NCBI RefSeq assembly: GCF_054482525.1
Contig: NZ_CM137006.1
Reading direction: 5' to 3' (one strand)
Length of the DNA: 64,000 nt
Below, piece by piece: positions 18,345 through 48,186 of the stretch. Within the stretch, counting starts at the first letter, position 1; every line of letters begins with the position of its first letter. A program made the position numbers and the translations under genes. The notes under the pieces were generated by a model. It was not told where the DNA came from and made no database searches. It saw only the letters and a list, made by a program, of their open reading frames with translations.

Positions 18345-18929
18345 TTATTGTTTGCTTTTTTCGTTCTGGTTGATGACAAATTCAATGTAACTTTCGATCT
18401 TTGCTTTCTCGGTTTCGGGTAACAATGCGTAGCGCGAGCGGTCATAGTTGATAGTCGCAGGGTCGTGCGGGTGAATCAGTAATTCATAGCCGTGACGCCC
18501 GAATGCGGATGCAACATTCTCCAGGGTGGAAATGGAAACGCTGACCTCATTGTTTAACAGGCGGCTGATTGTCACCTGGGCGACGCCGGATGCGCGGTGA
18601 AGTTTTCCCTGTGTTGAAAGGTCGCGGCTTTCGCTCATCCAGCGTTCCAGGTTGTGAGCCGCCAGCTGACCAATGTCGCTTGGGCCGACAGGCTGAAAAC
18701 CTTCCTGAGAAAGCGAGCGATCGATATCAAGCCAGTTACGGGGTTTATTGGCGGCAGCTTCAATTTTTCGCGCAACCTGGTCGCCGATAACCTTCTTACC
18801 AAGAGCCCAGCGGTTTACCAGATTTGCCTGAGTTCCAAGTTTTTCTGCCATCCGCGTCTGAACACCATTGAATTCACGGTCGATCAAGTCGTTGAGATTT
18901 TGCCTGCGGACGTCCTGGATACTTTTCAT
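18345..18929 (-). CDS. Prophage repressor with two XRE-type HTH domains and no S24 peptidase domain
   Basis: 194 aa. HTH 1 reads VQTRMAEKLGTQANLVNRWALGKK and HTH 2 reads LHRASGVAQVTISRLLNNEVSVSISTLENVASAF. It is divergent from a cro-like gene, and no Ala-Gly or Ser...Lys autocleavage module is seen. Confidence 0.7.
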   Translation of the reverse strand: MKSIQDVRRQNLNDLIDREFNGVQTRMAEKLGTQANLVNRWALGKKVIGDQVARKIEAAANKPRNWLDIDRSLSQEGFQPVGPSDIGQLAAHNLERWMSESRDLSTQGKLHRASGVAQVTISRLLNNEVSVSISTLENVASAFGRHGYELLIHPHDPATINYDRSRYALLPETEKAKIESYIEFVINQNEKSKQ

Positions 18930-29192: not shown

Positions 29193-29209
29193 GTTACCTG
29201 AAAGGTAAT
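29193..29209. promoter_or_regulatory. Dyad site O10 (GTTACC-TGAAA-GGTAAT)
   Basis: Perfect dyad between the leftward tRNA unit and the rightward structural operon. Confidence 0.55.
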
Positions 29210-45472: not shown

Positions 45473-45769
45473 ATGCAAGCTATAGGATTCATTGTTTATA
45501 TCGTCGTTGGTCTTTTTCAGTTGGCAGCAATTATGGCTGGGCTTGAATCATGGTGGGGATTGCACTGGATAATTGCAGCCCCCATTGCTTTCATCGTGAG
45601 CTATATTCCATTTGTTGGAGCGATTGTTGGTATGGTTGGCGCTGTGGATGTATGGCGGTGGGAGTGGTGGCAGGCTGGCCTTCTCTTCTTTGGTGGGATC
45701 ATCTTTGCTATTGTCTGCGGTGGAATGTCATCATTTTTCGAATGGCTATCATTCAGAAAAGGGACGTGA
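45473..45769 (+). CDS. 98-aa polytopic membrane protein (hypothetical)
   Basis: It has three to four hydrophobic segments and is Trp-rich (VDVWRWEWWQAG). Confidence 0.55.
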   Translation: MQAIGFIVYIVVGLFQLAAIMAGLESWWGLHWIIAAPIAFIVSYIPFVGAIVGMVGAVDVWRWEWWQAGLLFFGGIIFAIVCGGMSSFFEWLSFRKGT

Positions 45770-45777: not shown

Positions 45778-45802
45778 AGGCCGCTTTCGCGGCCTTGTTT
45801 TT
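45778..45802. terminator. Terminator at the end of the structural operon, shared with the convergent small gene
   Basis: AGGCCGC-tttc-GCGGCCT is followed by TGTTTTT. Confidence 0.75.
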
Positions 45803-45962
45803 AACGAATGCCACCGCCGCCCGGACGGGAATCCGCAGAACGCCCACCGCAGCGGGAGCCGTCAGCGGCAGTATCGCTGTCGTGCTGACAACGACCGGCA
45901 AAGGCCTGAGTTGAAGCTACCAGAGACAACAAAACGAACAGTGCAGCAAATGCTTTTTTCAT
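45801..45962 (-). CDS. Secreted 53-aa pre-peptide (signal peptide plus 31-aa Gly/Arg/Asp-rich, two-Cys mature part)
   Basis: MKKAFAALFVLLSLVASTQAFA | GRCQHDSDTAADGSRCGGRSADSRPGGGGIR. The longer GTG start at 46034 would begin inside the upstream terminator. Confidence 0.45.
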   Translation of the reverse strand: MKKAFAALFVLLSLVASTQAFAGRCQHDSDTAADGSRCGGRSADSRPGGGGIR

Positions 45963-46034
45963 TGTGAAATTTCCATCTATAAGCCACCTCAATGTGGCGT
46001 CAATGAGTGTAGCACTGACTTTTGTTTCGTCCAC

Positions 46035-46055
46035 AAAAAATCCCGCAGCGCGGGC
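46035..46055 (-). terminator. Terminator after the YafO-like gene
   Basis: On the minus strand, CCCGC-gct-GCGGG is followed by ATTTTTTG. Confidence 0.5.
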
Positions 46056-46601
46056 TTATTCCTTCCATTTATCAGAAAAAAGATCTTCTTCTAAAGGCAT
46101 TGGTTCTGTTTTTGTTTTCTCAAAGAATTGATAACTGATAGTGATTGCTGCCTCTTTAAACTCTTCTTGCTCAGTTATGTTGTGGGCATCTGCGTCAACA
46201 AAAAACATAACCAGCGCATCACGATTGTGATTTACCGAATAAACTAAAAAGCAATTACTTGTTGGTATGCATTTTACTTGCACAGACGCTATTTTTTTCC
46301 ATGCATCCCAAGATGATTTTTTACCAGTGTGTTTTTTATCACTATCTTCTGGAATATAGTCTTGGTTATCGACATGAGTATGCCTGACATTTAGTTTAAG
46401 CATTTCTGTCGGACGAGCAAATGCAGCATCTTTACCAAGAGATGGATGGTATCCCGTTTTCCAATACTGGGTAAAGGCATCAGATACTTTCTTCAGCTCA
46501 AGATCAGATGCACAAAGGGCCGAGAAATTTTGCGTATGCAATACTCGACCCTTATATCTGACAATTTGATTTTTATCATTCTGCGACGCAGACGAACTCA
46601 T
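46056..46601 (-). CDS. YafO-like toxin domain protein (putative ribosome-dependent mRNA interferase)
   Basis: It starts at MSSSASQ after AAGGAAAATT. The pattern F.QYWKTGYHPSLGKDAAF....LKLNVRHTHV...TSNCFLVYSVNHNRDALVMFFVDADAHN parallels the E. coli YafO pattern F.SYKRDGVLPDIFGRDALY...VAHIHL...DEAHLVYCQG...AWLLIAILKPEPH. Confidence 0.45.
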   Translation of the reverse strand: MSSSASQNDKNQIVRYKGRVLHTQNFSALCASDLELKKVSDAFTQYWKTGYHPSLGKDAAFARPTEMLKLNVRHTHVDNQDYIPEDSDKKHTGKKSSWDAWKKIASVQVKCIPTSNCFLVYSVNHNRDALVMFFVDADAHNITEQEEFKEAAITISYQFFEKTKTEPMPLEEDLFSDKWKE

Positions 46602-46755
46602 AATTTTCCTTATTGTTACGAGAATCAAAGAAAGCGCGGGATACGCGACTTGCGTGATCTTTTGTCATAGTAACTTTTACGCACTCTACGCTTCCATTGA
46701 AAGAACGTCTTGCGGCAGCTTGCGCTCTACGCATCTGCAATTTTTCGTTTCGCAT
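46576..46755 (-). CDS. 59-aa basic protein upstream of and overlapping the YafO-like gene (candidate antitoxin/regulator)
   Basis: MRNEKLQMRRAQAAARRSFNGSVECVKVTMTKDHASRVSRAFFDSRNNKENYEFVCVAE. A GAGGT SD lies 6 nt upstream, and it overlaps the downstream start by 26 nt. Confidence 0.3.
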   Translation of the reverse strand: MRNEKLQMRRAQAAARRSFNGSVECVKVTMTKDHASRVSRAFFDSRNNKENYEFVCVAE

Positions 46756-46781
46756 GACATTACCTCATATCTCATAAGTTC

Positions 46782-46810
46782 ATTACACGGATTAATAAAA
46801 ATGAAACCAA
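46782..46810 (-). promoter_or_regulatory. Candidate sigma70 promoter of the YafO-like operon (TTGGTT-17-TGTAAT)
   Basis: Read on the minus strand. The dyad O11 lies 4 nt upstream of the -35. Confidence 0.4.
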
Positions 46811-46814
46811 TCCG

Positions 46815-46831
46815 TTTACCCTTGAGGTAAT
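46815..46831. promoter_or_regulatory. Dyad site O11 (TTTACC-CTTGA-GGTAAT)
   Basis: Perfect TTACC-N5-GGTAA. Confidence 0.55.
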
Positions 46832-46867
46832 AGTACGCTATTCACCCACAGTCTGCAATCTGTACAG

Positions 46868-46894
46868 AATTATTTAAAGGCACATCCCTGTGCC
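46868..46894 (-). terminator. Hairpin after the Bro-N gene
   Basis: On the minus strand, GGCACA-ggga-TGTGCC is followed by TTTAAATAATT. Confidence 0.45.
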
Positions 46895-46902
46895 GCCGCC
46901 CG

Positions 46903-47598
46903 TCAGAAGAACCCTGCCTTGTCGTTGATGTACTCCGCGTGCGTCTGGATATCACGCAGGCATTTGCTCACACCGACGATGTAGCAGAACATGGTGGTCA
47001 GCTCCGCCGCCGCGCCCGATACGTCGTGCCCGTCGTCCTGTAACTGGTTCAGCAGATTCATCAGCAGTGAGTTCTCCGTCAGGCCGAGAACACCAGACGG
47101 CGAATGAATCAGGCTGCGGTAGCCGGGCTTCAGTGGGGCACTGTAGGTTTTGTTCTCTATCTTCATCGCCTGCATCACTGCTGATGCTGTGGCGTTGGCT
47201 ACCTGGTCGGCAACCATCTTTATGCGCTCTTCCTGCGGGAGCGAGTTTTTAATGTAACTTCCGGTGCGGCGGATCTGAGGAAGAACCTCACCTGTAACCC
47301 ATTTACGAAAGCGGTATGGGATAGTGCCTGGTGTCACTGCGTCGCGGCAGCGGAGGATCAGTGTGTAGAGGCCTGACTCGGAGATGATGATCGATTCTTG
47401 CTCACCGCCAGGGGTGTCGGTTGAAGCGACGCCCTTCTCATCATCATCAAGTTTTCGAACAGCATCTCGATGGTTTGCTATGCCTATAGCCCGACAAACA
47501 TCTGAAGCGATAAACCATGGCTCACCATTAATGACGATTACTCGTATATCGGCTTGGGATTCGAAAGAAAAAATGGACGTGCTTTTTGTAGCTGTCAT
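46903..47598 (-). CDS. Bro-N domain antirepressor-like protein
   Basis: 231 aa. The N-terminus FESQADIRVIVINGEPWFIASDVCRAIGIANHRDAVRKLDDDEKGV is a typical Bro-N domain. The C-terminal 70 aa are paralogous to the ORF at 47914-48186. Confidence 0.7.
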   Translation of the reverse strand: MTATKSTSIFSFESQADIRVIVINGEPWFIASDVCRAIGIANHRDAVRKLDDDEKGVASTDTPGGEQESIIISESGLYTLILRCRDAVTPGTIPYRFRKWVTGEVLPQIRRTGSYIKNSLPQEERIKMVADQVANATASAVMQAMKIENKTYSAPLKPGYRSLIHSPSGVLGLTENSLLMNLLNQLQDDGHDVSGAAAELTTMFCYIVGVSKCLRDIQTHAEYINDKAGFF

Positions 47599-47913: not shown

Positions 47914-48186
47914 TTATCTGGTTTGTTTTCGTAATTGTTCGGCACAATAGTCGAGATGTGTTTGCAGATCCTGCATAGACATCTGTGAGCTGGTGACGTA
48001 GTTAATCAGTGCAGTCAGTTCGGCAAGTGGGCCATCGACATTAAATCCATCCTTATCTAGATCCCGGAGTAATTTCATCAAGTGCGATCCCTCCACCAGT
48101 GACTTGACGCCTCCCGGCGTGTGAATCCTTTCGGTAAATCCGTCTTCCAGTGGATAGTGATACTGCTGCATCTTAATCTTCTCCAT
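47914..48186 (-). CDS. Small LexA-controlled protein homologous to the Ant C-terminal domain (candidate SOS antirepressor)
   Basis: A 90-aa ORF. The likely real start is the ATG at 48171 (85 aa), 9 nt after GGAG. IHTPGGVKSLVEGSHLMKLLRDLDKDGFNVDGPLAELTALINYV...MQDLQTHLDY aligns with Ant IHSPSGVLGLTENSLLMNLLNQLQDDGHDVSGAAAELTTMFCYI...LRDIQTHAEY. Confidence 0.6.
   Translation of the reverse strand: MEKIKMQQYHYPLEDGFTERIHTPGGVKSLVEGSHLMKLLRDLDKDGFNVDGPLAELTALINYVTSSQMSMQDLQTHLDYCAEQLRKQTR

Follow-up and report, generated by a model that had tools for sequence, protein, structure and literature searches.

A YafO-type toxin gene and a conserved 59-residue partner form a probable toxin-antitoxin-like pair under apparent prophage operator control in Escherichia coli

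The 64,000-nucleotide stretch of DNA analysed here (NCBI RefSeq assembly GCF_054482525.1, contig NZ_CM137006.1; hereafter the window) contains an E. coli prophage of the epsilon15/phiV10 type (Uetakevirus), and this prophage carries two overlapping genes on the minus strand, one for a 181-residue protein related to the toxin YafO (46056..46601) and, upstream of it, one for a basic protein of 59 residues (46576..46755). Together with a promoter/operator region and a terminator, the two genes make up a self-contained, AT-rich accessory unit, and the explanation we favour, and regard as probably right, is that this cassette is a type II toxin-antitoxin-like pair under prophage operator control. 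The toxin is not new, since RefSeq already labels the 181-residue protein 'type II toxin-antitoxin system YafO family toxin'; its superfamily is known and annotated, and the family of the partner is unnamed.

According to this explanation, the YafO-type protein would be an endoribonuclease that arrests translation, by analogy with YafO, and the 59-residue protein, making contact with its conserved C-terminal helix and its acidic/aromatic tail, would bind the toxin directly and so neutralise it. Because the partner has no recognisable DNA-binding domain, the prophage repressor may take over transcriptional control in trans. The start of transcription would most likely be a sigma-70 promoter whose -10 element adjoins the operator. 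Occupation of the operator would then keep the cassette repressed, at least in part, and derepression would follow when immunity collapses, whether by induction or by infection. Candidate roles for such a cassette are abortive or exclusion defence, shut-off of host translation in early lytic growth, and selfish stabilisation.

Much of the description given in a first-pass annotation, made from the letters of the window, is borne out by the analysis below. The larger open reading frame (ORF) lies where it was placed, on the minus strand, and the YafO motif series read in it aligns with the conserved positions of that family; its excess over YafO, put at about 50 residues, is 49 by our count, and the surrounding DNA is AT-rich as described. 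The upstream overlapping ORF with its GAGGT Shine-Dalgarno sequence and basic product, the statement that this product could not be named and was not like YafN, the terminator belonging to the cassette, and the repressor-type dyad all held up as well, and the small ORF behaves as a gene and not as an untranslated leader. The proposed promoter and the suggestion of activation by the repressor fared less well, as described under the operator.

A divergent, extended subfamily of YafO-type proteins

The 181-residue protein (ATG at 46601; phrog_1651) is 49 residues longer than YafO of E. coli K-12 (132 residues). The Pfam profile YafO_toxin (PF13957), to which the first-pass annotation had pointed, does match it (E 6.6e-5), but with a score of 23.4 bits it misses the gathering cut-off of 25, and because of this shortfall we file the protein under a divergent subfamily and not as a canonical member of PF13957. 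The same profile matches all 23 close relatives that were aligned (E ≤0.01), and three of the five distant subfamily members scanned (P0041, P0045, P0052, P0060 and P0073) pass the cut-off, at 26.5 bits for P0041, 28.1 for P0045 and 25.7 for P0073.

Kinship with K-12 YafO is seen at the profile level only, because a BLASTP comparison of the two proteins is negative. When the profile of the 181-residue family was run against 1.84 billion representatives, only 70 proteins were retrieved, and the tail of that list is made up of proteins of about 130 residues that score 83-93 bits on PF13957. Canonical YafO proteins were reached in this way at library-wide E values of 4.6e-6 to 8.7e-4, and two proteins from the tail (P0090 and P0108) match K-12 YafO directly (BLASTP, 6e-15). 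An hhalign comparison of the family with a canonical YafO alignment, composed of K-12 YafO plus sequences taken from the family profile's own matches, gave a probability of 99.8% (E 2e-27 over 131 columns). The canonical positions retained in the 181-residue protein are F43, G56-K57-D58, P64, H74, H76, S115, L119, Y121, A139 and H140; N116 also aligns with a canonical position, at which most relatives have D, and the other motif residues are invariant or nearly so in the subfamily. The conserved polar residues of YafO, three histidines among them, are invariant throughout it. On these profile comparisons, the protein represents a divergent, extended subfamily of the YafO superfamily.

Other collections added little. 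There was no meaningful match for toxin or partner in NCBIfam or PADLOC (none in PADLOC-DB at E ≤1), PHROGs assigns each of the two to a family of unknown function, and BFVD gave no significant match; searches of PDB sequences with the toxin and partner profiles returned none, and a scan of GTDB species-representative genomes with family patterns found zero relatives. The best AlphaFold2 model of the toxin is of moderate quality (predicted local distance difference test score, pLDDT, 72; predicted template modelling score 0.69), with low confidence for residues 81-115, and the fold of the protein is putatively RelE/HigB-like.

Relative to YafO, the protein has an N-terminal extension, a Lys/Trp-rich insert containing GKKSSWDAWK, and a C-terminal extension with the motif MPLxEDLFSDKW. 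We also note that the insert (residues ~78-112, with W98 and W101 invariant) and the C-terminal extension (166-181) are conserved in the subfamily and lacking in canonical YafO; both could contact the ribosome, RNA or the partner.

A conserved partner gene immediately upstream of the toxin gene

The 59-residue ORF (46576..46755, minus strand; phrog_6685) overlaps the start of the toxin gene by 26 nt, and the two genes are taken to be translationally coupled. Its GAGGT Shine-Dalgarno sequence (46762..46766, minus strand) stands 6 nt before the ATG, where the block ATGAGGTnATGTCATG is kept in relatives, and the ribosome-binding site of the toxin gene, read off the sequence as AAGGA (46607..46611, minus strand), lies within the partner ORF. 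Pairwise comparisons of diverged loci gave ratios of nonsynonymous to synonymous substitution (dN/dS) of 0.16-0.35 in frame versus ~0.7-4 in the other two frames, and because the in-frame values are low we take the ORF to be a protein-coding gene and not a leader; the substitution pattern indicates purifying selection on the protein. RefSeq E. coli chromosomes leave this gene uncalled, and in phage TL-2011b it is listed as hypothetical.

The layout is that of type II systems, with adjacent co-directional genes, the small one first, kept together as a pair. In every one of the 16 loci compared, an ORF of 52-139 residues stands immediately upstream of the toxin gene, and in 15 of them it overlaps the toxin start, by 8-26 nt. 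These loci lie in Uetakevirus-type prophages of several genera, in a siphovirus tail module before the tape-measure gene, in an Arsenophonus prophage, in phage EC.W1-9 and at one non-phage chromosomal site (L058). The N-termini of the partners are variable; their C-terminal ~35 residues share a motif, roughly [VK]x[MVL][ST]x[EKD]x[AS]xx[IV]S[RK]x[FM], after which comes an aromatic/acidic tail. When a hidden Markov model of the closer partners was tried on 323 background segments, the partners from three independent distant loci took ranks 1-3, and the identities of partner and toxin co-vary across loci (rho 0.62).

The 59-residue protein contains 12 Lys and Arg residues (isoelectric point, pI, 9.9), with an Arg-rich N-terminal helix (pI 11.8 across 24 residues). 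It has no significant match in Pfam, NCBIfam, PADLOC or PDB, no DNA-binding family matches it, and a database search with the partner profile led to 39 clusters, every one annotated as hypothetical. A resemblance of its C-terminus to that of YafN was considered and is ruled out by hhalign, which gives the partner profile a probability of 0.1% against K-12 YafN. The AlphaFold2 model has helices at residues 2-20 and 32-44 and a disordered tail. A ribbon-helix-helix reading of the segment VKVTMTKEHA..VSRAF finds no Pfam match, and the monomer model shows two helices and no strand; ribbon-helix-helix strands arise only in dimers, and the monomer model thus bears little on that reading. On its sequence features the protein is a candidate antitoxin with the anatomy of a type II antitoxin and no recognisable DNA-binding domain, and it is probably the antidote of the toxin.

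Some of the more distant loci differ in ways worth recording. In two metagenomic or prophage siphovirus contigs (L006, 5817-6537, and L007, 5751-6471) the pair is part of a late operon of tail genes, where it has a DUF6246 gene on one side and the tape-measure gene on the other, and a short palindrome, GACG(C/T)TATCGTC, lies directly upstream of the partner's Shine-Dalgarno sequence, a regulatory setting unlike that of the Uetakevirus loci. At two distant loci (L057, 2673-3014, and L060, 2059-2478) the partner is far longer, at 113 and 139 residues, and retains the C-terminal motif only; the N-terminal domain matches no known family, consistent with modular antitoxins that swap N-terminal domains.

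A prophage operator at the putative cassette promoter

The dyad upstream of the cassette, TTACC-N5-GGTAA (46816..46830), is a repressor-type site and the most conserved upstream element in all Uetakevirus-type relatives; the only conserved element there is the prophage operator and not a cassette-specific site. In the window, (A)TTACC-N5-GGTAA(T) occurs at 17 sites with at most one mismatch, versus 1.3 expected. These sites (13189-51808) include 18211, 18273, 18985, 19033, 19370, 21272, 21334, 25983, 26001, 29194, 46816, 47868, 48249, 48481 and 51808. Sites in an OL/OR-like arrangement, 18211/18273 and 18985/19033, lie to either side of a repressor gene, and the pairs 18211/18273 and 21272/21334 are exactly 62 bp apart centre to centre. 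The cassette operator is single, without the second site 62 bp away that is found at the early promoters. The repeated dyads suggest that one repressor directly controls many prophage units, including some near the terminase and portal genes.

The presumed immunity repressor (18345-18929, minus strand; 194 residues) is assigned by its HTH_3-type matches, the only ones it has, and by its position between the dyads. No peptidase S24 domain is found among these matches, and because of this induction may rely on antirepressors, such as the Bro-N protein, and not on RecA-mediated self-cleavage.

Upstream of the dyad is a positionally conserved promoter candidate on the minus strand, with the -35 element TTGCAG (46853..46858) and the -10 element TACTAT (46830..46835; mostly TAATAT in relatives). 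The -10 and the operator share one base, the last of the former and the first of the latter, an offset of -5 as at other sites. Eight of the nine Uetakevirus-type loci compared have such an element upstream of the dyad (TTGxxx-17/18-TA(A/C)TAT or CA(A/G)AAT), and the sequence around it has diverged. Three further sites have this fusion of -10 and operator: 18211, the leftward early promoter (TTGACA-17-AATCAT, the last base of the -10 again being the operator's first base); 21334 (TTGATT-17-TTTAAT); and 47868, which is upstream of the Bro-N gene (TTGCAA-17-TATATT). Weaker cases occur at 29194 and 25983.

The first-pass annotation had placed the promoter between the dyad and the gene instead, at TTGGTT-17-TGTAAT (46782..46810, minus strand; -35 at 46810-46805, -10 at 46787-46782), and had suggested that the dyad, centred near -48, could mediate activation by the prophage repressor. 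The hexamers exist, but they match 8 of 12 consensus positions (3 of 6 in the -35), were not flagged by the promoter scan, and fall in a segment whose length varies, the distance from dyad to ATG being 46-75 nt among relatives. This variable segment is, to judge from its sequence in relatives, best read as the 5' untranslated region. The fusion of the conserved -10 to the operator implies occlusion and, because the conserved promoter lies upstream with its -10 abutting the dyad, the operator is most likely placed at the transcription start, where it would repress. We therefore hold with moderate confidence that the operator represses the cassette and consider activation less likely.

An inverted repeat that overlaps TTGGTT-17-TGTAAT, ACGGATT-N15-AATCCGT (46787-46815), was considered as a cassette-specific autoregulatory operator and rejected: it has one exact copy in the window and is absent in relatives. 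As an RNA hairpin, its stability is not above that of shuffled sequence (z -0.59).

At the other end of the cassette, the scan identified an intrinsic terminator (46035..46054, minus strand) with the stem CCCGC-GCT-GCGGG (46042-46054) and a T-run. Relatives repeat this structure right after the stop codon with the stem kept and the loop varied, and for that reason we regard the terminator as functional and not as a chance occurrence.

Alternative explanations

Several observations weigh against a toxin-antitoxin-like pair controlled by the prophage operator. The 181-residue protein is under the Pfam gathering cut-off (23.4 versus 25 bits) and finds no match when compared with K-12 YafO by BLASTP; its structural model is of only moderate quality, with the remaining four models averaging a pLDDT of ~50, and Foldseek found no significant PDB match for it (the best was HigB2, at E 0.8). 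Among close relatives the partner is better conserved than the toxin, which is unusual for antitoxins. That the dyads are bound by the 194-residue helix-turn-helix protein is deduced from gene position only, and the upstream promoter matches 7 of 12 consensus positions in the window, no better than TTGGTT-17-TGTAAT; because these scores do not separate the two, we prefer the former for its conserved position and by analogy. A role in lysogen defence is hard to reconcile with a cassette that is repressed in lysogens. The literature searched holds no report of toxicity, neutralisation or binding for the pair, and nothing relevant was found in it on this module, on TL-2011b or on phiV10/epsilon15 operators.

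An unlikely alternative, close to what the first-pass annotation had envisaged, is that TTGGTT-17-TGTAAT is the promoter of the pair and the operator is centred near -48, so that the repressor would activate a toxin-antitoxin or abortive-infection defence in lysogens. Of the sequences downstream of the dyad in the window, this element is the best candidate, all E. coli copies keep the dyad centre 68 nt before the ATG, and repression could be weak given a lone operator with no companion site 62 bp away; moreover, accessory genes of prophages that have a promoter and a terminator to themselves are frequently expressed in lysogens. Yet the segment that holds the element differs in length and sequence in every related lineage, which means that the operator-promoter geometry is not conserved, whereas the positionally conserved promoter lies on the other side of the dyad and has a -10 that is fused to the operator, as at promoters that need repression; the scan did not report the element, and neither protein has a PADLOC match. 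Slightly less likely again is that the 181-residue protein is a lytic-phase endoribonuclease of the phage that shuts off or remodels host translation once derepressed, with the 59-residue protein as a timing or regulatory subunit or an RNA- or DNA-binding protein and not as a labile antitoxin of the classical kind. The early-promoter geometry of the cassette operator, the neighbouring repressor-controlled leftward units with their adjacent Bro-N antirepressor-like gene, the Arg-rich N-terminal helix of the partner and its unusually high conservation would all suit such an effector. Against it, the gene order, the start/stop overlap, and the combination of a variable N-terminus with a conserved C-terminal motif are standard type II antitoxin anatomy, the cassette is dispensable (phiV10 and most relatives are without it), and a single early-lytic role is ill-fitting for a pair that also occurs outside phages (L058) and in a siphovirus late tail operon. 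We consider it very improbable that the YafO-like protein is nuclease-dead and the pair non-toxic in function, or that the small ORF is merely a coupling leader. The sub-threshold Pfam score, the low-confidence insert of ~35 residues and the C-terminal extension not present in YafO, and the debate over the mechanism of YafO itself (PMC8546651) could be read that way, but the conserved polar residues of YafO, including the three histidines, are invariant in the subfamily, and selection at the protein level together with a motif common to distant partners is not expected of a mere leader.

The toxin-antitoxin explanation can be carried a step further, to an immunity-gated switch that couples a YafO-type RNase and a minimal antitoxin, one that lacks a DNA-binding domain, directly to the immunity operator of the prophage. 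We put this forward tentatively, as possible but rather doubtful. If it is true, loss of repression, caused by induction or by the antirepressor of another, attacking phage, would be the only condition under which the pair is made, and the pair would act as an early-lytic brake on host translation or as an abortive response by which a competing phage is deprived of the cell; the 59-residue protein would then found a new antitoxin family specific to the extended YafO subfamily.

Relationship to known toxin-antitoxin systems

The closest comparison is with YafN-YafO of E. coli K-12, encoded in the dinB-yafN-yafO-yafP operon. The toxins are homologous at the profile level, with the series F..Y/W..G(R/K)D..RP..H.H..SD..LVY..AH in common, and in both cases the toxin gene is preceded by an antitoxin-type gene. 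Expression of yafNO is tied to LexA, and a stress- or immunity-linked promoter would be common to both systems, here in the form of the putative prophage repressor operator. Unlike K-12 YafO, the toxin described here is 49 residues longer and carries both an internal insert rich in Lys and Trp and a conserved extension at its C-terminus, and whereas YafN is a 97-residue protein of the Phd/YefM type, the 59-residue partner is unrelated to it (hhalign 0.1%).

Other systems are more remote. Toxins of the HigB2/HigB1/RelE type (RelE/ParE fold) are 4-15% identical to the 181-residue protein, with no significant Foldseek match, and no HigA/HTH-type antitoxin is present. Classical higBA has its toxin gene first; the order here, with the putative antitoxin gene first, is the opposite. 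PaaR2-PaaA2-ParE2 of an E. coli O157 prophage offers a functional analogy for the apparent control logic of the cassette. It differs in having an adjacent regulator gene, lacking here, where the immunity repressor of the prophage would act in trans instead, and its toxin is of the ParE type and not of the YafO type.

YafO is among the least understood E. coli toxins: its structure is unsolved, and whether it depends on the ribosome is a matter of dispute (PMC7180214, PMC8546651). In the survey of Leplae et al. (2011), YafO was found on neither phages nor plasmids, and its partners were Phd-type or unclassified only (PMC3141249). The pair described here is phage-borne, and the pairing of an unnamed partner family with YafO-type toxins on phages, as traced by sequence comparison, extends that survey. 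Prophage genes annotated as YafO are usually described as orphan toxins (PMC10449497), and 'orphan' YafO genes have been reported from P. aeruginosa prophages (PMC10449497), Pseudomonas tailocins (PMC4684702) and Salmonella mTmII (PMC9836087). By their description these too lie in phage accessory regions, but there a cognate antitoxin went unrecognised, whereas here a conserved partner family is present. The cassette thus offers a specific candidate for a minimal antitoxin family that would be new, a compact two-protein system suited to structural work on a YafO-type toxin, and a case in which toxin-antitoxin control appears to have been handed to a prophage repressor operator. For annotation, the consequence is that in about 1% of complete E. 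coli genomes (59/5426) a 'YafO family toxin' is annotated without its partner gene.

The accessory segment and its neighbours

The cassette lies in an accessory segment (45824..46891) that is an insertion relative to phiV10: by blastn, phiV10 homology ends at 45823 and restarts at 46892, and the phiV10 annotation has none of these genes. Within the segment lie a gene for a small secreted protein, the terminator, the toxin and partner genes, the 5' region and the operator, and its toxin-partner part is 38.8% GC, versus 48.7% for the prophage. It is flanked by the gene for a conserved 824-residue virion protein and by the Bro-N antirepressor-like gene, with the tailspike gene downstream of the region. 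The 1.3 kb around the cassette is found, at a coverage of at least 80%, in the 59 complete E. coli genomes mentioned above; among isolated phages, essentially only TL-2011b matches it. The cassette is dispensable, being missing from phiV10 and from most relatives.

Directly beyond the cassette terminator, in the part absent from phiV10, a gene at 45801-46034 (minus strand) encodes a small protein with a signal-peptide-like N-terminus that belongs to phrog_14503, a 'membrane associated protein' of the moron category. Further along, at 45473-45769 (plus strand), a 98-residue multi-pass membrane protein (phrog_3075) takes the place of the 46-residue membrane protein of phiV10. On the other side, an ORF of 90 residues (47914-48186, minus strand) is homologous to the C-terminal domain of the adjacent Bro-N antirepressor-like protein (46903-47598, minus strand), and both match phrog_450 and phrog_15539; the ORF is a free-standing copy of this domain and has an operator-associated 5' region to itself (site 48249).

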